Of a stretch of 64,000 nucleotides of DNA, positions 10,294 to 57,133 are shown in pieces (position 1 is the first letter of the stretch; each line of letters opens with the position of its first letter). This stretch comes from Candidatus Latescibacterota bacterium. GTDB lineage: Bacteria > Latescibacterota > UBA2968 > UBA8231. The notes below the pieces were generated by a model, which worked only from the letters and a program-made list of their open reading frames with translations, was not told where the DNA came from and ran no database searches. Position numbers and translations under genes: made by a program. The DNA lies in the NCBI GenBank assembly GCA_965248355.1, contig OZ252098.1, positions 5,439,662 to 5,503,661 of the forward strand, read 5' to 3'.

Positions 10294-10295
10294 AA

Positions 10296-11614: not shown

Positions 11615-11617
11615 CGA

Positions 11618-20246: not shown

Positions 20247-20322
20247 TACGGAACGATTCGCAGGGCGAGTGTGCCGCAAATCGGAGACTCTGTCAAGGCC
20301 ATCCCGCAGGAGGTCGCTCCAA

Positions 20323-25156: not shown

Positions 25157-25158
25157 GG

Positions 25159-26226: not shown

Positions 26227-26230
<4 letters not shown>
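25159..26230 (+). pseudogene. Disrupted hybrid sensor kinase (REC fragment + HisKA + HATPase in three frames)
   Basis: REC MTNAKILIVE...DLALVD (frame 1); H-box LHNIGNAINS and N-box NLVKNS (frame 3); DNGIG, F.PGYTTK, GSGLGL (frame 2). Confidence 0.85.
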
Positions 26231-28116
<1,886 letters not shown>

Positions 28117-28444: not shown

Positions 28445-28461
28445 CTGGAACGGATTGTGCC
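28445..28461 (+). promoter_or_regulatory. Sigma-54 (-24/-12) promoter
   Basis: CTGGAACGGATTGTGCC has exact GG-N10-GC spacing and is followed by GGAGG and an ATG at 28491. Confidence 0.65.
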
Positions 28462-28609
28462 TGTACCCAGTGATTCCCCCGGAGGGCAGGATGACGCACA
28501 GGCGCGTTCCTGCCCGCGGGTTCTTCCAAGAGGTACAACCGCCCGGCTCCTTGCGGTTTCTGCCGCGCAGGCGCAGGAAACGCAGGCCGCGCCAAGGCAC
28601 TTACAGTCC

Positions 28610-31600
28610 ATGTACGATTCATACGATCCATTGTGCCCGGGTCCCGGCGCCCCGCGGCGCGCCCCGCCGCGGTTGCGTTCCCGGAACCCCGCCGTCGCGC
28701 TGGTGTACCTGATCGCCGCGCTCGTCCTCCTCGCACCGGCCGGCATTTGGAGCCAGGTCAACCGGGACAGCCACCTGCCCGAAGTGTCCGTGAGCCTGGT
28801 GGGCGGCGTGTTGGGAACCTATGAGGATTTTCCCGTTCTGGAGGGCAACGTCATCCGCTTCGAGCTGACCCGCACGGGCGCGTTGACCGCAACGCTGGCG
28901 GTCGAGCTGGAGGTGACCTACAACGGCAGCCGGCAGACGCGTACGGCGACGTTCCCGGCCGGCGAGCAGACCGTCCAGGTAGACGTGGCCACGGACGAGA
29001 ACGAGGTGGTCGACGCCGCCCACCACTCGCTGACCGTCGCCATCCAGCCCGCCGCCACGTACCAGGTCAGTTCCGAGTCCGGCATGGTCAGCGTCGCGGT
29101 GCCGGACGACGACATCGAGATATTCGTGCGCCGCGCCTCCCTCAGCCCCGAGTCGGTGGTCGAAGGGGAGACGGACTACTACGACTTCGAGGTATCGCGC
29201 AACGGCGATACCTCGCTGGAGCTGGTCTCCGTGTACATGTTTGCGCAATTCGGCGACGGGGCCGTCACGCCGACGGTCAATGTGAATTTCGACGCGGGGC
29301 AGGCGTCGAAGCCGGCGCGCCTCCGATTGCCGGACGATGACGACCTCCACCAGGCCGACTTCACCGTGACGTACGGCGTCGCGGCGATCGTGGAACAGCA
29401 AGAGAATCGCAGCTACCGCCGGGGCGATCCGCATACCGCCACGTTCCGCGTCCTCGATGACGACCTGCCGGTCGTGGGAATCGCGGTGGCCCCCGAGAGC
29501 GGGGATGAGGGAACCGACTTCCAGATCACCGCGACCCGCGACGGGACCACCGGGGAATCCCTCACCGTGCTGCTGAGCGTGACCAGCAGCGGCGACTTCG
29601 GCACAGTGCCGTCATCATCCGTCACCTTCCCTCTGGGTGCGGCAGATACCACGCTGACCCTGCCGACGGACGACGACGATCTCGACGAAGCCGACGGGAC
29701 GTTGACCGTGACGCTCGACGAGAACGATGCCTACCAGATCGACGCCGACGCCGGCACGCGGTCGGTGACCGTGCGCGACAACGACCTGGTGCAGGTATCG
29801 ATTTCGGCGGATCACGACGACGGCGTCACCGAGGGCGAGACGCTCACGTTCACGCTCGCGCGCGGAGCACACAACACGGACGCGCTCGACGTGACGGTGG
29901 AGGTGAGCGAGACCGGCGAGATGGTTGCCGACGGCCTGGAAGGCTCGCGGACCGTGAGCTTCGGATCCGGTCAGGCAAGCGTATCGTTCACCGTGCCGAC
30001 GTCCACCGACCAGACCGCGGAAAGAGAGAGCACCGTATCGGCGCAGATCGAGGACATGGATGCGTATGCGCCGGGTTCGCCGTCAACGGCTTCGGTCACC
30101 GTGCGGGACGACGACCAGACCGTGATTCTGACGGTGAACCCGGACGCGGTGACCGAGGATGGGGGCGCGCAGACCGTGACGGTGACGGCGGCGCTGCACG
30201 ACCACACCAGCACCCGCGACACGCCGATCGATGTGACCGTGTCCGTGGCCGGGGAGACGGCGACCGCGGGGACCGACTTCCAGGCGGTGGCGGACTTCCC
30301 GGTGACGATCCCGGCCAACGCGCGCTCGGGAGCAGGCACGTTCATCCTGAACGCGATCGACGACGACGCATTCGAGGAAGACAAGACGCTCACCGTCGGC
30401 GGCGCCGCGACCGGACTGAAGGTGACCACCGCGACGCTGACGCTCACCGATGAGGACGTAGAGACCCTGCTGCAGGCGGTCCATAGGGACGGCAGGGAGA
30501 CCAACGCGACGACGGTTCGGGATATCCTGATCATGCGGGTGTTCTTCAAGGGCGCCGAGACCGTCACGGGATTCACGGCGGATGACATCGAGGTCACCGG
30601 CGGCGCCATCACCGAGATTGACCGACGTGACTACAGTACCGGCAGGATTGTCCACTTCGTCTGGATAGATGCCGCCGAGGACGCCGAGATGCTCACCTTC
30701 GTGGTGCGGAAGGATGCTATTGAAGAGGGCAATTTCCGCGCCGAGGCGACCTATACCGTTGTGCCGCCCCTCACCGTCACCCTGACCAGCGAGGCGACCG
30801 GGCCGGTGCAGGGCGACTTTGTCGTATTGGCGACGTTCAGCGAGCCGGTCAATTCAGGAAGTGGCGCGACGGAGTCCGTGGCGCACCTCTTCATCGTCGA
30901 CGAGGACGTCGATGTCGTGCATGGGAGGCGGCTCTACTCCAACGAGGTGTCGGCGACGCAGTGGCGGATCACCATCAGACCGGACGCCGGCTTCTACGGC
31001 ACCTTGCGGGTAACCATTGCGGAGAATGCCGCGTCGTTGCTGAACAACTCTCACATCTTCAACCAGGCGGCGGAGTTCGAGATCCTGGTGGACACCGTCT
31101 TCGACGACGCCGCGCTCGCCTCGCTGAGCCTGAGCGACGGCGTCGGTCTCGATCCGGCCTTCAGCTCGGGCCATACCGGGTACGAGGCCATCTTCGGCCG
31201 CGGCGTGACCGTGCGGGTACACGCGGCGGTGCGCGACCCCGGCGCCACCTTCGTCATCGAGCCGCGCTTCGACCAGAGCGACCAGTCTGCCGGTCACGAC
31301 GTGTTGCTGACGCCCGGCCGGGCGACCGAGATCACGGTGACCGTGACCGCGGAAGACCGCACGACGCGGCGCACCTATACCGTGCGGTTGGTCAACGCGA
31401 TCGTGACACTGGCGGTGACGCCGTCGCGCATCGGCGAGGACGGCGGGTCGGCCACGGTGACGGCGACGATCGATCCCCCGTTTACTCAGGGGGTGCGCGT
31501 GACGGTGGCGCCGGAGGCGGTGGCGCCGGCCGCGAGGGCGGATTTCATCGTCAGCGACCACAATTGGCTGGACTTCCCCGCCAATGCCACGGCGGCCACG

Positions 31601-34294
31601 GGCACGGTGACGATCACCGCGGTCAGCAACGATCTGCAGACGCTGGACAAGGAGGTCCGCGTCAACGGGACGACCCGCGCGCCCGGCGTGCCGGTGATCG
31701 GGACCACGCTGACGATCGAGGACGACGACCGCGTGGCGAAGTTGACGCTGAACCCCGAATCCGTGGGCGAGGAGGGGGGGGAGCAGACCGTGACGGTGAC
31801 GGCGACGATCGATCCCCAAAGCAGCACCCGCGACCAGCCGACCGCGGTGATCGTGTCCGTGGCTGGGGGCACGGCGACCGAGGGGACCGACTTTGCGGCG
31901 GTGGATGACTTCCCGGTGACGATCCCGGCCAACGCGCGCTCGGGAGCAGGCACGTTCAACCTGAACGCGGTCGACGACGACGCATTCGAGGAAGACGAGA
32001 CCATCATCGTGAGCGGCGCCCCGTTCACGCAGACGTCGACCGGGGCGACGCTGACGTTGACCGGGGCGACGCTGACGTTGACCGAGAATGACGTGCCGTG
32101 GGTGACGATGGAGAGCACGGAGGCGTCGGTCGAGGAGGGCGGCTCGGTCACGTTGACGCTGACCCGCGAAGGGTCGGTGACGAACCCGCTGACCATCCCC
32201 GGCTCGCTGTTGCGAAGCAGGATCTCGCTCGGCGAGGAGTATCGCGAGCACCCCGTCACCTTCGAGGCGGGCGAAGCGACCGCGACGCTCACCGTGGGGC
32301 CGCCTGATGACGAGGTGTTCTACACGCACCGGCAATTCAATGCCGAACTCGATACAAGCGATCCCCGGATGTTTCGCCTGCGGCGCACTTCTTCACCAGC
32401 GTCACCAGCGGTGTTTATCTCCATCGAGAGCCAGACCTATTTCGCCTTTCCCGTGGACGACGACGACCCGGTGCGGGTTACGATCACGCCGCAGGAAGAC
32501 CCGGTATCCGAAGCGAGCCGGGCCTGCTTTACAGTGTCGACCGACATGGTCTTCAGAACAGGCGTGCCGGCCGAATTGACCTTTGCGGTGACCGCCAGCC
32601 AGCAGGGCGATTTCCTCTCGGAGGCGCCCGGCAGCCACACCGTGACCCTGTCGAACTCGAGGAGTGATGCGAACGCCTCGGAGACGCCCACCCTGTGCCT
32701 GGATCTCGACGACGAGTTCGAAGGAGACGGCTCGGTCACCCTCCAGCTCGGCGAGGGTACCGTCCGGTTGGTCGTGGACAACCAAGAGAGACAGGCGCCC
32801 GACGTGGTAGCGGCCGACGCCACCGTGACCGTGACCGTCTCCGACAATGACGTGCCGTGGGTGACGATTGAGAGCGCCGCGGCGTCGGTCGATGAGGGCG
32901 GCTCGGTCACCTTCACGCTGACCCGCGAAGGGCCGCTGACGGACCCGCTGACCATCCCCGGCTCGCTGTTGCGGAGCAAGATCTTGTTCGGCCATGGGTA
33001 TAGCGGGCACCCCGTCACCTTCGAGGCGGGCGAAGCGACCGCGACGCTCATCGTGGGGCCGCCTGATGACGAGGTGTTCTACACGCACCGGCAATTCAAT
33101 GTCGAACTCGATACAAGCCATCCCTGGATGACCGATCCCCGGAGGTTTCGCCTGCGGGGCGCTTCTTCACCAACGGTGTTTTTCACCGACGAGAGCAGGA
33201 CCCATTTCGCCTTTCCCGTGACCGACGACGACCCGGCGCGGGTTACGATCACGCCGCAGGAAGACCCGGTATCCGAAGCGAGCCGGGCCTGCTTTACCGT
33301 GTCGACCGACGTGGTCTTCAGATTAGGCGTGTCGGCCGAATTGACCTTTGCGGTAGCCGCCAGCCAGCGGGGGGATTTCCTCGCGGAGGCGCCCGGCAGC
33401 CACACCGTGACCCTGTCGAACTCGACGAGTGATCCGAACGCCTCGAAGACGCCCACCCTGTGCCTGGATCTCGACGACGACAACGAGTTCGAAGGAGACG
33501 GCTCGGTCACCCTCCAGCTCGGCGAGGGTACCGTCCGGTTGGTCGTGGACGGCAAAGAGAGAGAGGCGCCCGACGTGGTAGCGGCCGAAGACGGAGCCGG
33601 CGCCGCAACGGTGGGCGTTTTCGATAACGAGATTGCCCAGATGGTGGGGTATCATGAGGGTATATTGCATGTTCTTGCTGCCGGAGAAACAGGGAGACTC
33701 CACTTAACCGAAGACCACGACGTGAGTTTCACCATTCAACGTTGGGGGACGGATGCATTGGGCAATGTCCGCGAGGGGGAGAACTATGTAAACGGTTTCG
33801 ATATTCGGTTTCCCATACCACCCCTCACGGTAAACATCGATGCCCGTATTATATGCTTCAACGGCTTCGACGCGCCTGACTTGCTCGCCGGCCCATTGCC
33901 GACAACGGTGGTGTTCCCTGCCGGCGACGAGGATGGCGTGGAGCAAGACGACCTGTTTGTGCAACAGACACTCATTGAGTTCGTCGATGACGACGTGCTT
34001 GAGTGCGGCAGTTACATTGACGTATCCATCGCTGACGGTCTGTACCGAAGGCGGCCAACTTCCGAATTGGCCGATCCTTCCCATAGGCCGCAGTCTCCAT
34101 ATGCCCTTCTCGAGGTCGCAATAAACGACAATGACCAGCCAACGACTTCCATAACGACCAATAGCGAATCAGTGGAGGAAGGGGAAGACATTGTTCTTAC
34201 CGTGACCCGGCGGGATAACGATATCGTAAGTCCGCTGAACACGACTTTGCGAGTATTTAGAAGCAATAGTAGAAATGTAGGGTTTGACAGTTAG
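28610..34294 (+). pseudogene. Giant Calx-beta/Ig-like adhesin, N-terminal part truncated by IS
   Basis: Signal-like segment (ALVYLIAALVLLAPAGIWS), acidic Thr/Val-rich beta-sandwich repeats, cadherin-like domain near 31100-31400. The TAG stop is created by the IS end. Confidence 0.85.
32087..33630 (+). repeat. Tandem duplication (period 759 bp) within the adhesin
   Basis: AATGACGTGCCGTGGGTGACGAT occurs at 32087 and 32846; near-identical framework. Confidence 0.9.
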
Positions 34295-35590
34295 GCTTTG
34301 TCCCGAAACAGATGATTCACTTCAACCCTCAGTGGCCGGCCGGATCGTGTAGTTCCAATCCCCGTGAAACGCATGGGGCGAGAGATGGATCCGCTCCATC
34401 TGCTCGTCCTTGACGACCACGCCCTTGGGATAGGCTCCCTTGTCGATTTCCGCCCGGACTCGAAGCCCTTTCTGCGTCGTCGTCCGGCCGATCAGGTTGA
34501 CCACCGTGGCCAGACTGACCAGAGGTTGGCCTCGCCAGTTCTTGGCGATATAGGAGAACAGGCGATGCTCGATGCGGTTCCACTTGCTCGTGCCCGGCGG
34601 ATAGTGACAGACCGTGATCGTCAGGCCCGTGCGATCGGCCAAGCGCTGCCATTCCCATTTCCACAGTCGCAGTCTCGGGCCGTTGCTGCCCCCCGCATCG
34701 GCTGTGATCCACAGGCGGGAGGCCGCCGGGTAGGCGGCCCGTCCCATGCGTTTCCACCAGCTGCGGATGGCGTTCACCGCGAACCCGGCGGTGTCGTGGT
34801 CGACCCCGACGCTGACCCAGCCCTCGTTGCGGCTCAGGTCGTAGACCCCGTAGGGAATCGCCTTGCCCTGGGTGGGGATGATGAAGTCGTGGACCTTCAC
34901 GCGCTCCGGATCGCCCTTCGGACGCCAGGCCCGCCCCCCGTTCTTGAAGTTGCCGATCAGTTCCTTCTTCTTGGTGTCCACCGAAATGACCGGCTGGCCT
35001 TGAGCCTGGGCCCTTCGGACCTGGTCGTGGAGGTAGTGAAACGGGGCGTCCCGATCCGGGTGTTGCGTGCCTTCTTTCGTCTTGCGATTCGCCTGCAGCG
35101 TGTAGCCGAGCTCGTGCAACAGTCCGTGGACGAGGCCAGGACTCACCGAATGGCCCAGGGCCTGCAACTCGACCGCCAACTTGCGGATGCTCTTCGACGT
35201 CCATCGCAAGGGGCTGTCGTCCGGCGCCCCGGCGGTGACCGGTTCGAGCAGGGCATTGAGGTCCGACAACAGCGTCACGTCGGTGTCGATGCGCCGCTTG
35301 CGGCCGCCGCCCGGCCGCCGCACACGGCCGGGGTCCAACGGGGCGTCCGACCGCAGTTCCTGCAGGCCGCGAGCGATCCGGGTCCGCGACAGGCCCGTCG
35401 CACGGGCCACCACCGCAATGCCGCCATGTCCCAGGGCTTGCGCCTCGGCGGCGGCCCACAGGCGTCGCGTGCGCTCGTTCAACACCGGCGTCAAGGCTTC
35501 GTATTTCGCCCGCAGGGTGCTTTCCGTGTCCACCCGTCAAGGATAACACCTTTCTATCAGAAAGAACAGCGTTTATTTCTGCGCAGTGCC
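34294..35590 (-). mobile_element. ISAzo13-family insertion sequence, 1297 bp
   Basis: TTA direct repeats at 34291-34293 and 35591-35593; imperfect terminal IRs GGCTTTGTCCCGAAACA / GGCACTGCGCAGAAATA. Confidence 0.9.
34322..35533 (-). CDS. ISAzo13-family DDE transposase
   Basis: LNERTRRLWAA, SPLRWTSKS, ISVDTKKKE, ADAGGSN and GTSKWNRIEHRLF motifs; 403 aa. Confidence 0.93.
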   Translation of the reverse strand: MDTESTLRAKYEALTPVLNERTRRLWAAAEAQALGHGGIAVVARATGLSRTRIARGLQELRSDAPLDPGRVRRPGGGRKRRIDTDVTLLSDLNALLEPVTAGAPDDSPLRWTSKSIRKLAVELQALGHSVSPGLVHGLLHELGYTLQANRKTKEGTQHPDRDAPFHYLHDQVRRAQAQGQPVISVDTKKKELIGNFKNGGRAWRPKGDPERVKVHDFIIPTQGKAIPYGVYDLSRNEGWVSVGVDHDTAGFAVNAIRSWWKRMGRAAYPAASRLWITADAGGSNGPRLRLWKWEWQRLADRTGLTITVCHYPPGTSKWNRIEHRLFSYIAKNWRGQPLVSLATVVNLIGRTTTQKGLRVRAEIDKGAYPKGVVVKDEQMERIHLSPHAFHGDWNYTIRPATEG

Positions 35591-37209
35591 TTATGTCCCT
35601 GGGGGTGAGGAGGTTACCTTTTTTCAATCTTCAATAGGAGTACCATTTGGCCGCAATGTGACGACAGTGATCCGTAGCCTCGAGATACCGGACGACGACG
35701 TAGATGGCGATGTTTTTTTTCTGCATTTTGGTTTTTCTCCACTTGCGGGTGATTACCATATTCCAGACGGGATCCACCCGGTGGTGAGGGTGACGGACGA
35801 CGACGAGCGCGGGGTGACCGTCTCGCCGACGTCGTTGTCGATCCACGAAGGCTCCGAGTCCAGCTACACGGTCAAGCTGGACTCGGAGCCGACCGCGAAC
35901 GTGACCGTGGTGGTCGGCGGGATGGCCGGAACGGACGTGTCGGTGAATCCCGAATCGCTGACGTTCACCAGGAACAAATTGAACGCGAACAACTGGAACG
36001 CGGCGAAGACGATTGCGGTGAGCACCAGGGAGGACGCCGACAAGCTGGCCGACGTGGTGCGCTTGACCCACACGGCCACGGGTGGGGACTACGGCGCCAA
36101 CGGGGCGACGGTCGACCTGGAGGTGACGGTCGAGGAGGACGCGTCGATCAGGCTGACGCTCGACCCGACCTCCGTACCGGAGTCCGCCGGCCACTACGGC
36201 CCGCCGCCGGGCGGGGGCGGTCCTAACGCCTGGAGAGGCGCCACCGTGACGGTGACGGCAACGCTGAATTCGGCCGCGCGGACGGAGGACACGGTGGTGC
36301 GCGTGTCGGTGGCCGGCAATACCGCGAGCACGAGCGACTTACGTCAGGAGGTGGAGCCCTTCGACCTCACGATTCCGGCGAACGCGCAGAGCGGTGAGGC
36401 GCAATTCACCCTGATACCGTTTGACGACAATAGCGCAGAGAGCGATGAGACGTTGACGGTGAGCGGAATGTTGACGGATCCGGTGCCGTGGCTGACGGTG
36501 GAATCGGCGGAGTTGACGTTGGCCGACGACGACGAGGTCTCGGTACTCGTGGAGCCGACGACGCTGGAGATTGACGAAGGTAGCAGCGCGACCTACACCG
36601 TGGCGCTGACCTCGGCGCCGACCGAGGACGTGACGATCAGCATGACGGTGAGCGGCGACAGCGATATCTCCGTACAGCCGGCGTCGCTGACGTTCACGAC
36701 AATAGACTGGCACGTAGCGCCGGTGCGGCCTGTGACGGTGGAAGCGGCGGCGGATGCGGATGCGGCGGCAGGTACGGCGACCATCGCGCACGGTGTGACG
36801 ACCAGTGGAGATTACCACGGGACCGTGGCCGCGTCGGTGACGGTGACCGAAAAGGACAACGATACGGCCTCGACGACCGCGACGCTGAGCGTGTCGCCGT
36901 CGTCGGTGGCGGAACGCGGCGGTGGCCAGGATGTGACGGTGACCGCGACGCTCAATGCGGCGACGCGGACGGAGGACACGGTGGTGCGCGTGTCGGTGGC
37001 CGGCAATACCGCGGGCACCGGCGACTTCCAGGCCGTGGAGTCTTTTGACCTCATGATCCCGGCGAACGCGCAGAGCGGCGAGGTGCCATTCAGGCTGACG
37101 CCGGTGGCCGACGGCGTGATCGAGGAGGATGAGACGGTCACGGTGAGCGGCACGGTACCGGTGTCGTCTGGCCTGACGGTGGAGAGCGCGACGGTGACGA
37201 TTATCGACG

Positions 37210-40200
37210 ACGCGCGCGGGGTGACGGTGTCGCCGACCGAGCTGGACATCCCCGAAGGCGGAAGCGGCACGTACACGGTGGTGCTGACTTCAGAGCCGAC
37301 CGCGGACGTGACGGTGGCGGTGACCACGGACCTCGCGGGCACGGACGTGTCGGTGGACAAGACGAGTCTGACGTTCGCGCCATCGACGTGGAACACCATG
37401 CAAACGGTTGTGATCAGCGCGGCGGACGACAATGATGCGCTGGCGGACGATCCGGTGACGATCACGCACGACGTCAGCGGCGGCGACTACGGTACCGTGA
37501 CCGCAGACCCGGTGAAGGCGACGATCATCGAGAACGACGCGCCGACCCTGTCGATGTCCGGCGTGCGTGCGGATGAAGACGTCGGCGACATGACGTTCAC
37601 GGTGACGCTGAGCGTGGCCAGCAGCCAGACCGTGACAGTGGCCTATGCCACCTCGAACGGAACGGGCGCTGGAGCGGCAACCGCTGGCGAGGACTACACG
37701 CTGACCAATGGCACGCTGACGTTCCCTGCCAACAGCACGGCGTCCCGGACGATCGCGGTTGCGATCACCGACGACGCGGTGGACGAGGGGGGCGACGAGA
37801 CCTACACGGTGGTGCTGGACTCGGAGCCGACCGCGGACGTGGCGGTGACGGTGGCGGTTCCGCAGGACACGGACGTGTCGGTGGACAAGACGAGTCTGAC
37901 CTTCACCGCGGGCAACTGGGACGATGAGCAGACGGTGACGGTCAGTGCGGCCGGGGACGAGGATGCGGTGGTGGATGATGCGGTGACCCTGACGCACACC
38001 GTCAGCAGCACGGGCGACTACAACGGCGAGACCGCCGCGGACGTGGCGGTGACGATCACGGAGACCGACACGCCGACCCTGTCGATGTCCGGCGTGCGTG
38101 CGGATGAAGACGTCGGCGAGACGGTGTTCGAGGTGACCCTGAGCCTGGCCAGCAGCAACCAGGTGAGGGTCCAATACCGCACCTCGGATGGCACCGCGGC
38201 CGCGGGTTCGGACTATACGGAAGCGACGGGGACGCTGACGTTCGAGGCCGGGACCACGACGGCGCAGGAGATTCGCGTGCCGATCACCGACGATGCGGTC
38301 GATGAGGAAGAGGAAGAGACCTTCACCGTGACGCTGCACAGCGCTGCGAGTGCGGATCTGGCCGGCGGCGGGACGACGCTGGCGGCGACCGGGACGATTG
38401 TCGATAACGACGACCCGGCGGTGACGGTGGCGTTTGCGACGGGGACCTACACCGCGACCGAGGGCGGTGCCGCGGCGACGGTGCAGGTGCAGCTGAGCGG
38501 CGACCCGGAGCGGACGGTGGATATTCCATTGACGCATACGCCGGGCACTGGTGCGACAGCGGCGGACTACTCGGGCGTGCCGGCGAGCGTGACCTTCGCC
38601 AGCGGCGAGACCGAAAAGACCTTCGCGGTGACGGCGACTGACGACGACGTGGATGAGGACGAGGAGACCGTGACGCTGGGCTTCGGGACGCGGCCCGATG
38701 GAGTGACGCTGGGCAGCCAGAGCAGTGCGACGGTGACGCTGGCCGACGACGACGCGCGCGGGGTGACGGTGACTCCGACCGCCCTGACGGTGGACGAAGG
38801 AGGCGACGAGACCTACACGGTGGTCCTGGACTCAGAGCCGACCGCAGACGTGGCGGTGACGGTGGCGGTTCCGCAGGACACGGACGTGTCGGTGGACAAG
38901 ACCTCGCTGGCCTTCACGGCCGACAACTGGAACACGGCGCAGACGGTGACGGTCACCGCGGCCGGGGACGAGGATGCGGTGGTGGATGATGCGGTGACCC
39001 TGACGCACACCGTCAGCAGCACGGGCGACTACGCCAGCGAGACCGCCGCGGACGTGGCGGTGACGATCGCGGAGACCGACACGCCGACGTTGAGCATCGC
39101 GGATGAGAGCGTGGCCGAGGATGCCGGCAGCGCGACGTTCACGGTGACCCTGAGCGTGGCCAGCAGCAATGCAGTGACGGTGGCATTCGCCACTTCGAAC
39201 GGAACGGGCGCTGGAGCGGCGACCGCGGGCGAGGACTACACGCTGACCAATGGCACGCTGACGTTCCCTGCGAACAGCACGGCGTCCCGGACGATCGCGG
39301 TTCCGATCACCGACGACGCGGTGGACGAGCCGGATGAAGAGACCTTCACCGTGACGCTGAGCAACGCATCCAATGCGACCCTGGCGGGTGGACAGCCGAC
39401 GCTGGCGGCGACCGGGACGATCACCGACGACGACGAGCGCGGGGTGACCGTGACTCCGACCGCCGTGACGGTGGACGAAGGAGGCGACGAGACCTACACG
39501 GTGGTGCTGGACTCAGAGCCGACCGCGGACGTGGCGGTGACGGTGACGGTTCCGCAGGACACGGATCTGTCATTGGACAAGACCTCGCTGACCTTCACGG
39601 CGGACAACTGGGACGATGAGCAGACGGTGACGGTCACCGCGGCCGGGGACGAGGATGCGCAGGCGGACGATCCGGTGACCCTGACGCACACCGTCAGCAG
39701 CACGGGCGACTACGCCAGCGAGACCGCCGCGGACGTGGCGGTGACGATCGCGGAGAACGACACGCCGACGTTGAGCATCGCGGATGAGAGCGTGGCCGAG
39801 GATGCCGGCAGCGCGACGTTCACGGTGACGCTGAGCGTGGCCAGCAGCAATGCAGTGACGGTGGACTACGCCACCTCGAACGGGACGAGTCCTGAAGCGG
39901 CGACCGCAGGCGAGGACTACACGGAGGCCAACGGCACGCTGACGTTTCCTGCCAACAGCACGACACCGAAAACGATCGCGGTTCCGATCACCGACGACGC
40001 GGTGGACGAGGAAGAGGAAGAGACCTTCACGGTGACGCTGAGCAACGCATCCAATGCGACCCTGGCGGGTGGACAGCCGACGCTGGCGGCGACGGGGACC
40101 ATCACCGACGACGACGAGCGCGGGGTGACCGTGACTCCGACCGCCGTGACGGTGGACGAAGGAGGCGACGAGACCTACACGGTGGTGCTGGACTCAGAGC

Positions 40201-46200: not shown

Positions 46201-46810
46201 TGACTTCGCAGCCGACCGCGGACGTGACGGTGGATGTGACGGTTCCGCAGGGCACGGACGTATCGGTGGACAAGACGAGCCTGACGTTCACTTCAGACGA
46301 CTGGGAGACGGCGCAGACGGTGACGGTCGGCGCGGCCGGGGACGACGACGCGGTGGTGGATGATGCGGTGACGATTACGCACGCGGTCAGCAGCGCGGGC
46401 GACTACGCCGGCGAGACCGCCGCGGACGTGGAAGTGAGGATCGCGGAGTCCGACACGCCGACGCTGAGCATCGCGGATGAGAGCGTGGCCGAGGATGCCG
46501 TCAGCGCGACGTTCACCGTGACGCTGAGCGTGGCCAGCAGCAATGAAGTGACGGTGAAATACGCCACCTCCAACGGAACGGGCCCTGAAGCGGCGACCGC
46601 GGGCGAGGATTACACGGAGGCTGACGGCACCCTGACGTTCCCTGCGAACAGCGCGGCGCCGCAGACGATCCGCGTGCCGATAACGGATGACGATCTGGAC
46701 GAGGCGAACGAGGAGACCTTCACACTGACGCTGCACAGCGCTGCGCATGCGGATCTGGCCGGCGGCGGGACGACGCTTGCGGCGGCCGGCACGATCACCG
46801 ACGACGACGA
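37210..46810 (+). repeat. Array of two-domain units (period about 681-684 bp), interrupted by other modules
   Basis: Recurring RGVTVTPTA...HTVSSTGDY...TPTLSI...ETFTVTLSNAS units with high DNA identity. Confidence 0.85.
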
Positions 46811-47168
46811 TCCGCCGGCCGCCGGCATAGCGGACGCCGGTGCGTCGGAGGGGGACGGCGGGATCACCTTCACGGTGAGTCTGGAAACGGCCAGCGCCCG
46901 GGTGGTGACGGTGGACTGGGCCACGGCCGCGGACGCCGCCGCAGTCAACCCGGCGACCGCGGATGCGGACTACACCGCGGCGAACGGCACGCTGACGTTC
47001 CCCGCGCAGAGCACGGAGCGGACGATCCGCGTGCTGCTGGTGGACGACGACGCGGTCGAAGAGTCGGAGACCTTCAAGGTGGAGCTGAGCAACGCCCGGT
47101 ACGCGACTCTGCAGGCGAGCGCCGCCGCCGCGGTGGGGACGATCGCCGACGACGACGTGGCGCCCCCG

Positions 47169-47273
47169 CCTGGGGAGGATCCGCCCACCCCTGGGGGAGA
47201 GCCACCCACCCCTGGGGAGGACCCGCCCCCGCCGAAGGAGGACCCGCCCACCCCTGGGGAGGACCCGCCCGTC
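47169..47273 (+). repeat. 5 x 21-bp Pro-rich minisatellite (PGEDPPT)
   Basis: CCTGGGGAGGACCCGCCCACC-like units in tandem. Confidence 0.9.
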
Positions 47274-47879
47274 ACCAGGAATCCGGAGGTGATCGTCTTC
47301 TTCGGGGCCGCGGACTACGAGGCCGCGGAAGGCGGCAGCGCCGCGGTGACCGTGCGCCTGAGCGCCGACCCCGAACGCCGGGTGACGATTCCGCTGACCA
47401 GGACCCACGTGGAGGGTGCCGGGGCCGCCGACTATTCGGGAGTGCCGGCCAACGTCGCTTTTTCCGCCGGCGAGACCTCGCAGGAGTTCGCCGTGACCGC
47501 CGTGGACGACGCCGTGGACGACGACGGCGAGGCCGTCGTTCTCGGCTTCGGAGCCTTGCCGTCCGGGGTCGCAGCGGGGGAGCCGGCCACGGCCGCGGTG
47601 GCCCTGGCCGACGACGACGTGCGCGGCGTGACCGTGCGGCCGGAAGCCCTGAACGTGCCGGAGGGCGGCAGCGGCTCCTACACGGTGGTGCTGGACACGG
47701 AGCCGACCGCTGAAGTGACCGTGTTGGTGGCGGCCCCGTCCGCTTCGGAGCTGTCCCTGGACGAGACCTCGCTGACCTTCGCGCCGGCGATCTGGAGCAG
47801 GCCGCAGACCGTGACCGTGAGGGCCGCCGAGGACGCCGACGCGATGGCCGACGATCCGGTGACCTTGATCCACGCGGTC

Positions 47880-50800
47880 AGGGGCGGCGACTACGAGGGC
47901 GTGCCCGCGGCCCCTGTCGAGGTGACGATCATCGAGGACGACGCGCCGACCCTGGCCGTTGCCGGCGGGACCGCGGCCGAGGGGGAGGGAGCGATCGAGT
48001 TTGCCGTCACCCTGAGCCTGTCCAGCAGCAGCGCGGTGACGGTGGAGTACGCGACGTCGGACGTCAGCGCCATGGCGGGGGCCGACTACCAGTGGACGGC
48101 CGGGATCCTGACCCTGCCGGCCGGAACGACGGAAGCGGCGATCCGCGTGCGGGTCGTCGACGACGACATCGACGAGGCGGACGAGACCTTCAGGGTCCTG
48201 TTGAGCAATGCGGTGAACGCGGTCGTGGGGGACGGCGAGGCCTTCGGTGAGATCGCCGACGACGACCTGCCGGTGGTGGAGATCGCCGCGGACCGGGCCG
48301 CGGTGGAGGAAGGCGGTACCGCGGCCTTCACCCTGACCCGGGCCGGCGACCTGACCGGGCCGCTGACCGTGCCGGTGCGCGTCGCCGAGCGCGGCGTGTT
48401 CCTGTCGGACGGGGTCCCGTCCGCGGCGACCTTTGCGGCGGGCGCGGCTACCGCGGCCCTCGAGGCGGCGACCACGGAGGACGCGGTCGACGAGGCCGAC
48501 GGTGCCGTGACCGCGGCGATCCTCGGCGCCGCCTCGCACCGGGTGGGCGCCTCGGCCCGCGCCGTAGTGACGGTTGCCGACAACGACGTGCGCGGGGTCA
48601 GGGTTTCGACGACCGCCTTGACTCTGCCCGAGGGCGGGGCCGGCACCTATACCGTGACGCTGGAAACAGAGCCCACCGGCGAGGTGACCATCCGGATGAA
48701 GATGGTATCGGAGGACCTCACGGTGACTCCGCCGATGCTGTCGTTCTCCCCGATGACCTGGGATGCGCCGCAGACGGTGACGGTGCGGGCCGCCGAGGAC
48801 GCCGACGCGGTCCTGGACCCTGCGGTGACCTTGACCCACGCGGTCAGCGGCGGCGACTACGGGGGCGTGCCCGCGTCTCCCGTCGAGGTGAGGATCCTCG
48901 AGGACGACGCCCCGGTCCTGGCCGTGGCCGGCGGGGCCGCCGCGGAAGGGGACGGGGAGATCGAGTTCGCCGTCACCCTGAGCCTGGCCAGCAGCAGCGA
49001 GGTGACCGTGGAGTACGCCACCGCGGAGGGCACGGCGAGGGCGGGCGAGGATTTCGAGCCGGCCACCGGGACCCTGACCTTCCCCGCCGGCGCCACCTCG
49101 GCGACGATTCGCGTGCCGGTCCTCGACGACGACGTCGACGAGGCGGCCGAGACTTTCACGGTGCGGTTGAGCCATGCCGTGAACGCGGCCGTGGGCGACG
49201 GCGAGGCCTTCGGTGAGATCGCCGACGACGACCTGCCGGTGGTGGAGATCGCCGCGGACCGGGAGGCGGCGGTAGAAGGGGAGACGGTGACGTTCACCCT
49301 GACCCGGGCCGGCGATCTGACCGGGCCGCTGAGCGTGCCGGTGGGCGTGACGCAGGAGGGTGAGTACCTGTCGGGCACGGCGCCTTCTTCGGTGAGATTC
49401 GCGGCCGGGGCGGCGACCGCGGCGTTCGCCGTGGCCACCGAGAACGACGATCGCGACGAGGAGGACGGGGCGGTTGCCGCGGAGATCCTCGGCGCCGCCT
49501 CGCACCGGGCGGGCGCCTCGGCCCGCGCCGCGGTGCCGGTGGCCGACGACGACGTGCGCGGGGTGAGGCTGTCCGCGACCTCCCTGACCGTGGCCGAGGG
49601 TGGCCGCGCGACCTATACGGTGGTGCTGACCTCGGAGCCGGACGCGGCGGTGACCGTTGCGATGGCGGTGCCCTCGGGCACGGATCTGACCGTGGTTCCG
49701 TCGGAGTTGACCTTTGCCGCGGCGACCTGGGAGGCGCCTCGGACCGTGACCGTGCGCGCGGATCAGGATGCCGACGCCGTATCGGACGATCCGGCGGCGA
49801 TCAGCCATGTGGTCGGCGGCGGCGACTACGAGGGTCTGTCCGCGGCCGGCGTCGAGGTGAGGATCCTCGAGGACGACGTCCCGGTCCTGGCCGTGGCCGG
49901 AGGGGCCGCCGCGGAAGGGGACGGGGAGATCGAGTTCGCCGTCACCCTGAGCGTGGCCAGCAGCAGCGCGGTGACGGTGGAGTATGCCACCGCGGAGGGC
50001 ACGGCGAGGGCGGGCGAGGATTTCGAGCCGGCCACCGGGACCCTGACCTTCCCCGCCGGAGCCACCTCGGCGACGATTCGCGTGCCGGTCCTCGACGACG
50101 ACGTCGACGAGGCGGCCGAGACTTTCACGGTGCGGTTGAGCCATGCCGTGAACGCGGCCGTGGGCGACGGCGAGGCCTTCGGTGAGATCGCCGACGACGA
50201 CCTGCCGGTGGTGGAGATCGCCGCGGACCGGGAGGCGGCGGTAGAAGGGGAGACGGTGACGTTCACCCTGACCCGGGCCGGCGACCTGACCGGGCCGCTG
50301 AGCGTGCCGGTGGGCGTGACGCAGGAGGGTGAGTACCTGTCGGGCACGGCGCCTTCTTCGGTGAGATTCGCGGCCGGGGCGGCGACCGCGGCGTTCGCCG
50401 TGGCCACCGAGAACGACGATCGCGACGAGGAGGACGGGGCGGTTGCCGCGGAGATCCTCGGCGCCGCCTCGCACCGGGCGGGCGCCTCGGCCCGCGCCGC
50501 GGTGCCGGTGGCCGACGACGACGTGCGCGGGGTGAGGCTGTCCGCGACCTCCCTGACCGTGGCCGAGGGCGGCCGCGCGACCTATACGGTGGTGCTGACC
50601 TCGGAGCCGGAAGCGGCGGTGACCGTTGCGATGGCGGTGCCCTCGGGCACGGATCTGACCGTGGTTCCGTCGGAGTTGACCTTTGCCGCGGCGACCTGGG
50701 AGGCGCCTCGGACCGTGACCGTGCGCGCGGATCAGGATGCCGACGCCGTATGGGACGATCCGGCGGCGATCAGCCATGTGGTCGGCGGCGGCGACTACGA

Positions 50801-51500
50801 GGGTCTGTCCGCACCCGGCGTCGAGGTGACGATCGCCGAGGACGACGTCCCGGTCCTGGCCGTGGCCGGAGGGGCCGCCGCGGAAGGGGACGGGGAGATC
50901 GAGTTCGCCGTCACCCTGAGCCTGGCCAGCAGCAGCGAGGTGACCGTGGAGTACGCCACCGCGGAGGGCACGGCGAAGGCGGGCGAGGACTTCGAGCCGG
51001 CCGCCGGGACCCTGACCTTCCCCGCCGGCGCCACGGCGGCGACGATTCGCGTGCGCCTCGTCGACGACGACGTCGACGAGGCGGCCGAGACCTTCACGGT
51101 GCGGTTGAGCCAGGCGGTGAACGCGGCCGTGGGCGACGGCGAGGCCGCCGGTGAGATCGCCGACGACGACCTGCCGGTGGTGGAGATCGCGGCGGAGCCG
51201 GCGGCGCTGAAAGAGGGCGGTACCGCGACCTTCACCCTGACCCGGGCCGGCGACCTGGCGGTGCCGCTGAGCGTCCCGGTGCGCGTCGGCGAGCTCGGCG
51301 CCTTCCTGTCGGGTACGGCGCCTTCCCCGGTGGCCTTCGCGGCCGGGGCGGCGACCGCGGCGTTCGCCGTGGCCACCGAGGACGACGCGGTCGACGAGGC
51401 CGACGGGGCGGTGACCGCGGAGATCATCGGCGGGGACGGACACCGGGCCGGCGCGGCCGCCCGGGCCACGGTGGCGGTCGCCGACGACGACGTGCGCGGG
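47880..51500 (+). repeat. About 969-bp three-domain repeats; two copies near-identical
   Basis: Near-identical antisense ORFs begin at 48857, 49826 and 50795 (spacing 969). Confidence 0.88.
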
Positions 51501-51806
51501 GTGCGGATCCTGGAGACCGCCTTGACGATCCGGGAGGGCGGCAGCGGCCTTTGTCCGGTGGTCCTGACCTCGGAGCCGACCGCTCCGGTGACGTTCTCCG
51601 CGGTCATGCCCGCGGGCGCGGAGATCACCATGGCCCCGCCGGCGCTGAGGTTCACCCCGGCCAACTGGAGCCAGAAGCAGGTGGTGACGGTGCGCGCCCT
51701 CCACGATGCCGACGCGGTGGCCGACGATCCGCTGGTCCTGGCGCATACGGTGAAAGGCGGCGACTACGAGGGCCTGGCCGCTCCCGTGGTCACGGTGACG
51801 ATCACC

Positions 51807-53750
51807 GAGGACGACGTACCGGGCGTGAAGGTCTCGGAGACGGCCCTGACCCTGGCCGAGGGGGATGCCGGCACCTACACGGTGGTGCTGGACACGGAGC
51901 CGGCCGCCGAGGTGACGGTGGCCGTGGAGGTGCCTTCGGGCACGGACCTGACGGTGACCCCCTCGGAGTTGCGGTTTACCGCCACCGACTGGAACACGGC
52001 GCAGACGGTGACGGTGACCGCGTCCCATGATGCCGATGCCGTGGCCGACGTTCCGGTGACCCTGGCGCATGAGGTCAGCGGCGGCGATTACCAGGGCCTG
52101 GCCGCGGCCGGCGTCGAGGTGACCATCGCCGAGGACGACGTACCGGGCGTGAAGGTCTCGGAGCCCGCCCTGACCGTGGTCGAGGGGGATGCCGCCACCT
52201 ACACGGTGGTGCTGGACACGGAGCCGGCCGCCGAGGTGACGGTGGCCGTGGAGGTACCCGAGGGTGCGGAGATCACGACGGCCCCTTCGCAGCTGACCTT
52301 CACGACGGAGACCTGGAACACGGAACAGACGGTGACGGTGACCGCGATCCAGGACGCCGATGCTGTGGCCGACCTTCCGGTGACCCTGGCGCATGAGGTC
52401 AGCGGCGGCGATTACCAGGGCCTGGCCGCGGCCGGCGTCGAGGTGACCATCGCCGAGGACGACGTACCGGGTGTGAGGATCTCGGAGACCGCCCTGACCC
52501 TGGCCGAGGGGGGCAGCGGCACCTACACGGTGGCGCTCGACACGGAGCCGGCCGCCGAGGTGACGGTGGCCGTGGAGGTACCCGAGGGTGCGGAGATCAC
52601 GACGGCCCCTTCGCAGCTGACCTTCACGACGGAGACCTGGAACACGGAACAGACGGTGACGGTGACCGCGATCCAGGACGCCGATGCCGTGGCCGACCTT
52701 CCGGTGACCCTGGCGCATGAGGTCAGCGGCGGCGATTACCAGGGCCTGGCCGCGGCCGGCGTCGAGGTGACCATCGCCGAGGACGACGTACCGGGCGTGA
52801 AGGTCTCGGAGACGGCCCTGACCCTGGCCGAGGGGGATGCCGGTACCTACACGGTGGTGCTGGACACGGAGCCGGCCGCCGAGGTGACGGTGGCCGTGGA
52901 GGTGCCTTCGGGCACGGACCTGACGGTGACCCCCTCGGAGTTGCGGTTTACCGCCGCGGACTGGCACACGGCGCAGACGGTGACGGTGACCGCGATCCAG
53001 GACGCCGATGCCGTGGCCGACCTTCCGGTGACCCTGGCGCATGAGGTCAGCGGCGGCGATTACCAGGGCCTGGCCGCGGCCGGCGTCGAGGTGACCATCG
53101 CCGAGGACGACGTACCGGGCGTGAAGGTCTCGGAGACGGCCCTGACCCTGGCCGAGGGGGATGCCGGTACCTACACGGTGGTGCTGGACACGGAGCCGGC
53201 CGCCGAGGTGACGGTGGCCGTGGAGGTGCCTTCGGGCACGGACCTGACGGTGACCCCCTCGGAGTTGCGGTTTACCGCCACCGACTGGCACACGGCGCAG
53301 ACGGTGACGGTGACCGCGATCCAGGACGCCGATGCCGTGGCCGACCTTCCGGTGACCCTGGCGCATGAGGTCAGCGGCGGCGATTACCAGGGCCTGGCCG
53401 CGGCCGGCGTCGAGGTGACCATCGCCGAGGACGACGTACCGGGCGTGAAGGTCTCGGAGCCCGCCCTGACCGTGGTCGAGGGGGACGCCGCCACCTACAC
53501 GGTGGTGCTGGACACGGAGCCGGCCGCCGAGGTCACGGTGGCGGTGGAAGTGCCCGCGGGTGCGGAGATCACGGCGGCCCCTTCGCAGCTGACCTTCACG
53601 ACGGAGACCTGGAACACGGAGCAGACGGTGACGGTGACCGCGATCCAGGACGCCGACGCCATTGCCGACGATCCGGTGACCCTGGCGCATACGGTGCGCG
53701 GCGGCGACTACGAGGGCCTGGCCGCGGCCGGCGTCGAGGTGACGATCACC
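51807..53750 (+). repeat. 6 x 324-bp tandem repeats (108 aa)
   Basis: GAGGACGACGTACCGGG at 51807, 52131, 52455, 52779, 53103 and 53427. Confidence 0.93.
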
Positions 53751-55542
53751 GAGGGGGACCTGCCGGTCCTGACCATCGCCGACGCCGAGGCGCCGGAGAG
53801 CGCCGGACAGATCCTCTTCACGGTGACCCTGAGCCTGGCCAGCAGCAGGACGGTGACCGTCGACTGCCGGACCGCCGACGGCACGGCGCGGGCGCACGAG
53901 GATTACACCGCCGCGGCGAACTTGCTGACCTTCGCTCCCGGCCGCACCGAGGCGCAGATTGCCGTGCCGGTCGCCAACGACGGGCTGCGAGAGGGGAACG
54001 AGACCTTCACGGTGGTCCTGAGCAACCCGGCCTACGCGACCATGGCCCGCGGCGCCGCGACCGGCACCATCGTCGACGACGACGCCTCGGTGGACGAGGC
54101 CTGGCTGGCGCGGTTCGGGCGCACCGCGGCCGGGCAGGTGATCGAGGCCCTGGACGAACGCCTGAGGCGGCTGCAACGGGGCGCGCACCTGACCATTGGG
54201 GGTCAGCGGCTGCAGCTGGGCGAGGCGCCCGAACCGGGGAGCCGGCCGCCGCATCGGAACATCCATCCGGTGGCGCCCTCGTTTCTGTCGTCAGACCTGC
54301 CCGGGCCCCTGCGGGCTCCCCGGACCGCACGCGGACCGCTGCGAACCGGGAGGGACCTGACCGGGGTTTCCTCGTTCGACATCCTGGCCCGCAGCTCCTT
54401 CTTCCTCTCCTCCGGACCGGCTCCCGGGGAAACGGGGGCCCGGTGGACCTTCTGGCGGCGGTGGGCGAAGTCGCATTTCAGGGGCGAGGATACCGGTATG
54501 TCCCTCGACGGCGGCCCCTGGACCGGCCTGCTTGGCGTCGACCGCGAGCAGGGCCGCGCGCTGGCCGGCCTCGCCTTGTCCTATACCATCGGGGACGGCG
54601 GATACCACGTGCACACGGCCGAGGAGGCCCTCGCGCGAGGCAATGCGGAAAGCTGGCTGATCAATGCGCATCCCTATCTGCGCGTCGCCCTCAACGAGCG
54701 GGTGTCGGCCTGGGGCCTGGTCGGCCACGGGCGCGGCCAGATGTCGCTGGGCGCCGGCCGCGAGCGCTCCGGCATCGCCATGACCCTGGGCGGACTGGGC
54801 CTGCGCGGAGCCCTGTTGCCGCCGGGCCGTCTCGGCCTGACGCTGCGGTCGGACGCCTTCCTGGTGCGCATGCGCTCCGCCGCCGCCGAGCCGGCGGTGA
54901 GCCGCGTGCGCATGGCGATGGAAGGCACCCGCGCCGTCCTGGCCGACTCGGGCCGCACCTGGACCCCCTCCCTGGAGCTGGGGGTGCGCCACGACGGCGG
55001 CGACGCCGAGACAGGGCTGGGTATGGAGCTGGGCGGCGGTCTGGGCTACAGGGACCCGGGGCGCGGCCTGACCGTCAAGACCACCGTGCGCCGGTTGCTC
55101 ATCCACCAGGACAGCGGCTACGAGGAATGGGGGGTGGGCGGTTCATTCGGTTTCAGCACGGGCGCCTCCGGCCGGGGGCTCGCCCTGCGGCTGCGGTCCT
55201 CCTACGGGGACGCGGCGAGCGGCGTGGACCGCTTCTGGTCGCAGCACCGCACCCCCCAGGCCGGGAGCTACCCCGCCGGCCGGGGCGGCCTGTTCAACGC
55301 CGAGGTGGGGTACGGTCTGGGAGCGTTGGGCGGCCTGCTGACCCCGTACGCCGACATGGCCTCGGGCCGGGGGACGCGCACCTACGGTCTGGGCGGGCGC
55401 CTGCGCCTGGAGCCCTCCCTGAGCCTGGAGCTGGCCGGCGGCCGCCGCGAGACGACCGCGGCCCCCCCCGGGCACGAGCTCAGGCTGCGCGGCACCCTGC
55501 ACTGGTAGCGCCCCGATCGCTTGATCTGGTCGATGCCGGCCC

Positions 55543-55561: not shown

Positions 55562-55617
55562 CGCGGCCTCGGGTGCTGGCGGAATGGGCGCCGGGGCCGG
55601 GGAGTGGCGCCTGGCCT

Positions 55618-57036
55618 TCAGCGAAGGAGAAGCAGTCTGCGGGTCTGCTCCTGCCCGTTGGCCCTGAGCCGGCAGGCATAGACGCCGGAAGCCAGTTCCA
55701 ACCCGCGGGTGTTGCGTCCCTCCCAGACGAAGGACCAGGTCCCTGGCAGGTAGAGCCCCCGGGCCAGGGTTGCGACCTGTTGTCCGCTCATGTTGAACAC
55801 CGCCAGTTCCATGTCGGCCCGGGTGTCCAGGTCGATGCGGATCACCGTCGACGGGTTGAAGGGATTGGGGTAGTTCTGCGCGAGGTGGAAAGCGGAAGGC
55901 CGGCGATTCACCTGCTCCACGTTCACCGCGGTCTCCGTCAGCGGGGTGGTGAGCCTGTAGGCCTGGAGGCCCACGGTGCCGTCGGCGAGGTAGAGCAGCC
56001 CGTCGTCGTGGGGCTGCACGCTCCAGGCGGACCCCGGATAGGTGTGGTAGCCGACTTCCACCGGGCGCGCCGGGTCGCTCAGGTCGAAGACGCGCAGACC
56101 CGCCTCGTAGCAGGCCCAGTACAACAGGCCGTCCCGGACCCACGGGTTGTGCGGGCCGAGGATTTCCCCATGAGGCGGTGGTTGCATGCCGAAGGAGTGG
56201 ATCAACTCAGGCTGCCCGGGATCGGCGATATCGACGACGTGGAGGCGCCGCTCCCAGCCGCCGAACTCCTGGTTGCAGTAGACGTAGTCCCCCTCGGCCC
56301 AGGCGCTGTGGGTGCCTTCGGGGAAGGGCAGCTCCCCAAGCAGCGCGGGTGCGTCCGGGTCGGTGAGGTCGAGAAGGACCAGCCCGGAGAAGTAATCGCT
56401 GACGACGGCGAGGTTGTCGCGGATGAAGACGTCGTGCACCAGATTGCTGAAACTTCCATGCTGCCAGGAGCCCGAGACCACGGGCGCGGCCGGATCGGAG
56501 ATATCGACGATGCTCAGGCCCGGGCTCTCCATGTGAGCGAGATAGAGGCGATCGCCGTGGATGAAGAGATTGTGGACGCCGCCCCGGCCGCGCGCCTCGA
56601 GCCGCGACAGCTCGACGGGATTGGCCGGATCGGAAATGTCGAGGATCAGCAACCCGAAGTCGGAGTCGATCCGCTGCACTCCGACAACCGCCAGATCACC
56701 CGCGATCTTGATGTCCACCGCGGGTCCGGGGGTGCGGACCTCGGCGACCTTGCGCATGTTGGCAGGATCGGAGATGTCGACGAAATGGACGATGCCGCGA
56801 AGATCCCCCATCAGCGCGTGGTCCCCCGCGAGATAGAGGTCGGTCCCCCAAGGCAGGTCCCCCTCCTGGGGAGGGCTGACGAGGACGATCTCGCCGACGC
56901 GTTCCACATGGAGGCTGTCGGGAGCCTCGTCGGGGGCGAGGGTGGGGAAGGGCGCCTGGCCGGTGGTCTCCGCGTGTCCGCAGGTGGCCGCGGCAACGAG
57001 GAGGATCAGCAGTGGCATGGGCTTTTCTGTGTGCAT
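55618..57036 (-). CDS. Secreted LVIVD-repeat beta-propeller with C-terminal FlgD-Ig (T9SS-CTD-like) domain
   Basis: AGGAGG RBS, signal peptide, repeated (I/V)DISDPxxP, and [18 protein letters not shown]...LASGVY...LLLLR. Confidence 0.85.
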
Positions 57037-57133
57037 GGCTGGTCCTCCTGGATTCAAGGGCGGCAGGCCCCGCGGCCCGTGGAAGAGACCCCGGTCATCT
57101 AAGGACGCCCCGGGAGACTGCGAAGGTTCCTCC

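Follow-up and report, generated by a model that had tools for sequence, protein, structure and literature searches.

Type V secretion systems move a passenger across the outer membrane through, or together with, its own C-terminal beta-barrel, and in classical autotransporters the passenger is normally a beta-helix. Giant adhesins such as LapA, SiiE and MpIBP belong to type I secretion systems (T1SS) and carry a C-terminal RTX/T1SS signal and no barrel. Insertion sequences (ISs) are known to bring about phase variation of surface structures, as IS492 does in Pseudoalteromonas eps, IS256 in staphylococcal ica and IS1301 in meningococcal siaA, where precise excision occurs at measurable rates. 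Here we describe a giant gene in a 64,000-nucleotide stretch of DNA (the window) from a Candidatus Latescibacterota bacterium (assembly GCA_965248355.1, contig OZ252098.1, positions 5,439,662 to 5,503,661). The gene, with a capacity of 8,532 aa, very probably encoded an autotransporter-like surface protein and was inactivated by the recent insertion of a resident ISAzo13-family element.

The insertion divides the gene into two long open reading frames (ORFs), and the coordinates of the parts are as follows.

28457..34294, plus strand: first ORF, 1,945 aa; the ATG at 28610 is its residue 52.
35586..55508, plus strand: second ORF, 6,640 aa; the GTG start at 35586 chosen by the ORF finder sits within the end of the IS.
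28610..34294, plus strand: N-terminal part of the giant gene, 1,894 aa counted from its ATG and ending at the insertion-made TAG.
35594..55508, plus strand: C-terminal part of the giant gene, 6,638 aa when read in the frame of that gene.
34294..35590, minus strand: ISAzo13-family IS, 1,297 bp, with GGC...GCC ends and weak terminal inverted repeats.
34322..35533, minus strand: transposase gene, 403 aa, apparently intact.
34291..34293, no strand: left TTA copy of the target-site duplication, read from the sequence.
35591..35593, no strand: right TTA copy of the target-site duplication, read from the sequence.

At the left junction the sequence runs ...GAC AGT TAG/GCTTTG..., and the TAG stop at 34292-94 consists of two target bases and the first G of the IS; the right junction runs ...CAGTGCC/TTA TGT CCC.... 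Removal of the IS together with one TTA yields GAC AGT TAT GTC CCT in the frame of both halves, and the rejoined gene measures 5,684 + 19,915 = 25,599 nt, or 8,533 codons with the stop, which gives 8,532 aa. The original prediction had read the two ORFs as one gene, had deleted 34294-35590 plus one TTA to obtain the same codons and had counted 25,599 nt and 8,532 aa from the ATG at 28610; the deletion and all of the figures were reproduced on recomputation. The join is not mere arithmetic, because a natural uninterrupted copy of the gene exists. The giant gene also contains two very long antisense ORFs, 46293..54266 (minus strand, 2,657 aa) and 41544..45704 (minus strand, 1,386 aa), which most likely are not genes themselves but shadow frames produced by its repetitive, GC-rich sequence.

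The uninterrupted copy (locus L013) was found by a scan of species-representative genomes and belongs to a related Latescibacterota genome, G041 (listed as G122 in the phylum set). There the gene is unbroken, encodes 9,019 aa and has the same MYDSYD... start and the same ...LRGTLHW end as the gene in the window; the ATG equivalent to that at 28610 is the first start codon after a stop. The site in G041 reads ...GGGTTTGACAGTTATGTCCCTGGG... with one TTA, whereas TTA stands on both sides of the IS in the window, and all 200 of 200 bases of the left flank are identical; on the right, two bases that distinguish the window from G041 stand 24 and 26 bases beyond the TTA. The two halves align to the G041 gene with a 3-base overlap (subject positions 8687 and 8685). 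A second homolog of 4,521 aa (P0004), recovered by a search for longer proteins, begins with the same MYDSYDPLCPGPG... residues as the window gene and its G041 counterpart and reads through the insertion site without interruption as ...RSNSRNVDSYIIGGGEV... (...NVDSYIIGG...). Looking up the clusters of P0004, P0006, P0008 and P0010 yielded no names. The original prediction had held that homologs in the form of two separate genes lacking the IS would speak against a single gene; the opposite was found, and neither of the two intact homologs is split. A query made from the junction had no match in 40 relatives, nor in the nine other genomes of the genus. Pfam assigned no family to the 180 aa that span the site in the intact ortholog. 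An impression gained by eye, that the IS cuts a Calx-beta-like domain, is not claimed.

The inserted element is a member of the ISAzo13 family. Its transposase matches NF033519 (ISAzo13 family transposase) with an E value of 1.9e-170 and 567 bits (cut-off 200) over positions 2-387 of 387, and PF07592 with an E value of 3.9e-137 and 456.8 bits (cut-off 26.9) over positions 1-308 of 308. These end-to-end matches uphold the assignment originally made from the letters alone. Like other ISAzo13 elements, it has a single ORF in 1.3 kb, is present in several copies, makes a short target duplication and fits the models over their full length; nothing about it is unusual beyond its weak terminal inverted repeats. 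In a direct comparison 14 of 25 ungapped terminal positions match, 10 of them within the first 15, and an inverted-repeat search at the IS ends reported no terminal pair. In the literature searched, ISAzo13 is named in 13 papers, in no case in the title or abstract.

A search of the genome, a single contig of 5,503,661 bp, revealed five further full-length and three partial copies. All six full-length copies share identical start and end bases and a length of 1,297 bp. The copy in the window differs from the other full-length copies at 42-54 bases, and four of the others differ from one another by 0-3; judged by these distances, the window copy would be older than the currently expanding subline or part of a different one. 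TTA flanks two of the six copies on both sides, and the flanks of the other four (CTA/TAA, GTA/TAA, TTA/TAA and CTA/TAA) fit a 2-bp TA duplication. The element is resident in the genus: a full copy at 92% occurs in G007, at least fragments are present in all five same-genus genomes searched, and a search of G041 did not find it. Several of the copies are noteworthy in their own right. One appears to be split into G000:C1:3172677-3172866 and 3174420-3175550 (L009 and L007; G000 is the window genome), with ~1.5 kb of foreign sequence in between that may be a nested insertion; another, G000:C1:2508190-2509260 (L008), ends early at position 1084; and a third, G000:C1:725883-727184 (L003), has an open frame of 500 codons or more directly at one of its ends and may interrupt a second gene.

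The case for an autotransporter begins at the C-terminus of the second half, where three parts can be told apart.

54093..54164, plus strand: conserved helix with an AWLARFGRT... motif (model residues 2-25; predicted local distance difference test (pLDDT) 93-96), which superposes on the autotransporter pore helix.
54441..55160, plus strand: predicted 12-stranded outer-membrane beta-barrel (domain residues 118-357; 12 DSSP strands; pLDDT mostly >90).
55161..55505, plus strand: conserved C-terminal tail reaching ~115 aa beyond the 12th strand, with 5-6 further predicted strands, ending in ...LRGTLHW (pLDDT 37-85).

An AlphaFold (AF2) model built from an alignment of homologs has an overall pLDDT of 74.8, with a low-confidence linker of ~90 residues at 29-114. 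The best Foldseek matches are all autotransporter beta-domains, namely Hbp, BrkA, NalP and EspP (E values of 7.8e-10 and up). Superposition with VIA-align gave Z 28.6 and a root-mean-square deviation (rmsd) of 2.1 over 248 aligned residues for NalP (1uyn) and Z 28.4 for Hbp, with the helix included and the alignments starting from model residue 1. Across the type Va translocators compared (NalP 1uyn, Hbp 3aeh, EspP 3slj/2qom, AIDA-I 4mee and BrkA 3qq2), Z ranges over 25-28.6 and rmsd over 2.1-2.4 for 226-251 residues. The helix residues W5, F9 and R11 are invariant in 28 aligned sequences. Three of these 28 match PF03797, over only the first 90-114 of the 255 profile positions, and 18 carry Calx-beta; the nearest Atlas clusters carry PF03797. 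The alignment profile matched only Calx-beta chains in the PDB, and these matches came from the N-terminal parts of the homologs. The domain matches 7,051 representative clusters; among the 150 best listed, nearly all of the matches run to within a few residues of the protein end, and the proteins that carry it are 469-5,491 aa long.

The C-terminal beta-barrel noted from the sequence thus gains a predicted fold that superposes onto autotransporter translocators, and the protein is modelled to work like a type Va autotransporter, with which it would share an N-terminal leader, a long passenger, a helix, a 12-stranded C-terminal barrel and a terminal aromatic residue. It differs from these proteins in having no PF03797 match, so that the scan for an autotransporter domain proposed alongside the original prediction drew a blank for this protein, and in its ~90-residue low-confidence linker between helix and barrel and its conserved tail of ~115 residues. 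None of the PDB matches extends past model residue 370, and in homologs the tail region is conserved to the last residue. The genome encodes this barrel in other places as well, and at two of these the open frame is long (4,675 and 2,042 aa); the loss of one family member may be tolerable, other copies being kept. One paralog, G000:C1:5074961-5076387, matches in two pieces that overlap and fall in separate open frames of 625 and 582 aa, and looks frameshifted.

Two further features lie at the N-terminus and in the passenger.

28685..28741, plus strand: hydrophobic core of a signal-peptide-like leader by Kyte-Doolittle hydropathy (residues 26-44), preceded by an Arg-rich stretch.
51676..53754, plus strand: tandem array within the gene, with a 324-bp unit, 6.4 copies and 90% matches.

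Kyte-Doolittle means over 15 residues reach 2.92 in the leader, and the signal peptide originally proposed is supported, by hydropathy, as a signal-peptide-like N-terminus. The scan for Calx-beta suggested at the same time was run with Pfam and found 22 separately scoring stretches in the second half (13 + 9), together with two DUF7507 matches; the first half has weaker Calx-beta matches, and the passenger also contains a cadherin-like domain. An adhesin role is plausible from this domain content. The passenger departs from the beta-helix of type Va autotransporters in being built of Calx-beta and other immunoglobulin-like (Ig-like) repeats. At 8.5-9.0 thousand aa, the protein exceeds all of the 150 best homologs listed (longest 5,491 aa). 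It resembles the giant T1SS adhesins in its very long array of Ca-binding Ig-like repeats, which would project from the cell surface, but differs from them in its signal-peptide-like leader and predicted C-terminal barrel. No RTX family was among the Pfam matches at E values up to 0.01, and no T1SS pair of an ATP-binding cassette (ABC) and a membrane fusion protein (MFP) adjoins the giant gene; the only HlyD-like gene in the window, 19119..20279, lies near an AcrB-type pump gene (12158..17287) on the same strand. The match of that pump gene (minus strand) covers only residues 677-1688 of its 1,709-aa ORF, and so either its start is placed too early or it has a long N-terminal extension.

A comparison of the window gene with its G041 counterpart by a simple Nei-Gojobori calculation on the two sequences shows a mosaic of divergence. 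Synonymous divergence (dS) is 0.015 in the first 1,883 codons vs 0.117 in the barrel, and the ratio of nonsynonymous to synonymous divergence (dN/dS) is 1.63 in the N-terminal part, 0.86 in the next 700 codons and 0.46 in the barrel. This pattern suggests intragenic recombination and a fast-evolving passenger.

The intact protein would have comprised an N-terminal Sec-type leader, a passenger of ~8,000 aa in which Calx-beta and other Ig-like repeats predominate, a helix as linker and the 12-stranded barrel, and would have been exported by a type V route. The IS would have landed at the TTA, duplicated it and created the TAG stop from two target bases and its own first base. The resulting N-terminal piece could still enter the periplasm but would have no barrel for crossing the outer membrane. 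The C-terminal piece would have the barrel but neither a leader nor a promoter of its own, and its only start codon would be the GTG inside the IS end. We infer that the gene is most likely off, because the N-terminal piece is without a barrel and the C-terminal piece without an export signal. It had been proposed that the insertion would release an unanchored N-terminal fragment of ~1,900 aa; since a type V passenger depends on its own C-terminal barrel, the barrel-less 1,894-aa piece is instead expected to stay in the periplasm.

The break appears to be young, as the original prediction had supposed from the lack of other lesions in either half. The fraction of single-base changes in the gene that make a stop is 0.0208, and the lack of any stop in 8,532 codons limits the neutral divergence accumulated after the break to less than ~0.56% (95%, counting point changes alone and assuming equal rates). 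The distance of the IS from its siblings does not date the insertion, because this bound is far lower than the 3.2% that separates the window copy from the nearest of them.

The same freedom from further stops could mean that the two halves are used separately, the first as a secreted or periplasmic protein that retains its leader and upstream region and the second from an outward promoter carried by the IS, with the GTG at 35586 as its start. Such use is very unlikely: the C-terminal piece has no export signal, the break interrupts a conserved stretch that G041 and P0004 both have in one piece, and no relative has two genes here (neither of the two intact homologs read across the site is split). 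The IS could also serve as a reversible switch, an alternative to the knock-out in the original prediction, in which precise loss of the element and one TTA would restore the gene in part of the population. The locus resembles the IS492, IS256 and IS1301 systems in that an IS sits in a gene for a surface structure, flanked by a short duplication whose loss would restore the frame exactly, and its transposase is intact. It differs in that precise excision is known in those systems and no excision product can be tied to this lineage. The sequencing data bearing on this point are Logan contigs of public runs, which drop rare variants. Run X15, which holds 0.78 of the sampled words and may be the genome's source data, has contigs that pass from unique gene sequence into both ends of the IS with no differences (100% identity), and the contigs of X15 and X1 contain no empty-site joint, which is weak evidence against switching given the loss of rare variants. 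Parts of the stretch that X1 contigs leave uncovered were kept out of this reading. IS-free forms of exactly this site do occur in X19 and X20, two runs from other hosts and studies: one contig in each skips exactly 1,300 bases (34290->35591), with 3 ambiguous letters, and each run also holds one diverged IS-free allele, one of which reads like P0004. These forms may belong to G041-like bacteria and not be excision products, because G041 is identical around the site; a co-occurring IS-free relative and other diverged alleles explain them more simply. A 3-bp duplication, moreover, offers little homology for host-mediated precise excision. The contigs show the insertion to be lineage-specific and do not show excision. 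We therefore regard a switch as having very little probability and retain the knock-out, the most likely of the two originally proposed consequences in view of the missing barrel and leader.

An assembly artefact, in which a chimeric metagenome join placed the IS or the whole island described below in a genome whose real gene is intact or does not exist, is equally improbable. In favour of a false join, the DNA derives from a mixed community, the same runs contain related alleles alongside many copies of the IS, and the island is nearly identical to DNA of another organism. However, the intact ortholog has a single copy of the 3 bp that are duplicated here, which is a signature of transposition and not of a mis-join; X15 contigs enter both IS ends from unique gene sequence without a difference; to its left and right the island is bordered by DNA that keeps synteny with same-genus genomes; and it carries an IS that is at home in this genus and that the search of G041 did not turn up.

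A single gene inactivated by a recent transposition thus remains by far the most probable account, and several points weigh against it. The nearest full-length sibling of the IS is 42 bases (3.2%) away and the source copy is not in the assembly, and so a very recent insertion is not directly shown. The X15 contigs reach 26 and 27 letters into the IS, under the 31-letter rule for bridging, in a run that may itself be the source data, and the 1,300-base joint in X19 and X20 carries the label 'between: not known'. With P0004 as outgroup, a relative-rate count is inconsistent between segments: the first ORF has 29 changes private to the window genome vs 40 private to G041 (p 0.23), and the first 700 codons after the site have 44 vs 17 (p 0.0007). 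Decay of the gene was considered on the basis of this test and dropped, as the segments disagree. The leader was called from hydropathy. The barrel is assigned from a predicted model and from partial matches in homologs; the C-terminal 472 aa matched no Pfam, NCBIfam or PDB sequence even at E values up to 10. About 115 modelled residues follow the 12th strand, a tail that classical autotransporters do not have, and the protein's last residue is a W, yet it stands that far beyond the strand. Finally, giant repetitive genes are often unassembled in fragmented genomes, and their absence from a relative is weak evidence; the exceptions are G006 and G007, which are near-complete and in which the sequence of the empty locus could be inspected.

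The giant gene is part of a larger island whose features are listed here.

25157..~55594, no strand: island including the IS, ~30.4 kb, with the sigma-54 activator and the giant gene; it replaces ~2.3 kb of same-genus genomes.
23897..25156, plus strand: histidyl-tRNA synthetase gene (hisS; Pfam tRNA-synt_His, E 1.2e-45), whose stop codon is the island's left edge.
26227..28116, plus strand: sigma-54-dependent response regulator with receiver, PAS, AAA+ and HTH_8 domains (Pfam Sigma54_activat, E 4.5e-68), just upstream of the giant gene.

Window positions 25155-55508 are 90-97% identical to G041 (counterpart at G041:C1:3885486-3921024), and the sigma-54 activator gene aligns gap-free across 1,890 nt at 96.9% identity, whereas the housekeeping DNA of window positions 1-20000 reaches only 64-73% and its syntenic block lies 0.8 Mb from the gene in G041. 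In the same-genus genomes G007, G006 and G002 the flanks are syntenic at 81-90%, synteny stopping at 25156 and resuming at 55595-55600. The site was read in G007 and G006 and holds ~2.3 kb without similarity to the island, which in G007 encode a TIM-barrel enzyme and a GCS2-family ligase. The 300 aa nearest the junction were found in two (G000 and G122) of the 168 genomes of the phylum, many of which are fragmented: in none of the nine other genomes of the same genus and in one of three of genus g22, which belongs to the same family. Because the island is 90-97% identical to a genome of another genus, as against 64-73% for housekeeping DNA, and was found in none of the nine other same-genus genomes, the comparison points to a recent horizontal exchange between two genera of one family. 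In the simplest history, a cassette of ~29 kb would have been exchanged between the genera and then struck by an IS resident in the recipient, an order and direction that we infer. No tRNA gene was found at the island edges. A sigma-54 promoter consensus had 19 matches in the window with at most 2 mismatches vs 17.6 expected; the one upstream of the giant gene (28178-28193) is without GG, and nothing is claimed from it.

Two observations concern the surroundings of the island. At G041:C1:3885486-3890366 (L021) the segment at the island's left end (window 25155-26219) is present in several copies of 80-97% identity, a duplication that the window does not have. Just right of the island in the window, an ORF at 56942..58798 (plus strand) encodes ankyrin repeats together with a membrane acyltransferase domain (Acyl_transf_3).

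Sponge and coral-reef metagenomes match this DNA at small shares (0.08-0.17), which is not evidence of habitat. Calx-beta is counted among the eukaryotic-like domains enriched in sponge-symbiotic Actinobacteriota in one study (PMC11706023), and sponge aggregation factor proteins are described as Calx-beta rich in two others (PMC5400394, PMC11670116). A paper on sponge Latescibacterota lists eukaryotic-like proteins, and a search of it by term found no mention of transposases, autotransporters, adhesins or cadherins (PMC12993501). The likeness of the giant protein to such symbiont proteins or to the aggregation factor would lie at the level of domain type. It can be speculated that the sigma-54 activator and the Calx-beta autotransporter of 8.5-9 thousand aa form a mobile host-interaction cassette that passes between genera of sponge-associated Latescibacterota. 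The barrel would then belong to an extensive branch of autotransporters (7,051 representative clusters) that has no model yet and is marked by a conserved tail of ~115 aa and Ig-like rather than beta-helical passengers. The passenger would be fast-evolving (dN/dS 0.86-1.6) and the barrel conserved (0.46); through its Calx-beta array the protein may contact the host's aggregation factor, itself rich in Calx-beta, and the IS knock-out in one lineage would reflect selection to drop the contact. We consider this scenario, taken as a whole, unlikely.

For annotation, the locus should be recorded as a single pseudogene and not as two giant proteins. Breakage of a surface-protein gene by an IS is a known and ordinary kind of event; of more use are the cassette that moved between genera, the length of the protein and the barrel family that lacks a model. 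This is a very large family of autotransporter-like C-terminal domains with an extra conserved tail that current Pfam and NCBIfam models miss, and it is worth asking how a type V barrel could handle a passenger as long as that of the intact 9,019-aa ortholog. The locus offers a clean, dated case in which a surface-protein cassette of ~30 kb most likely passed between genera of uncultured bacteria associated with sponges and was later disabled by a resident IS, and as such it bears on the turnover of symbiont surface repertoires.

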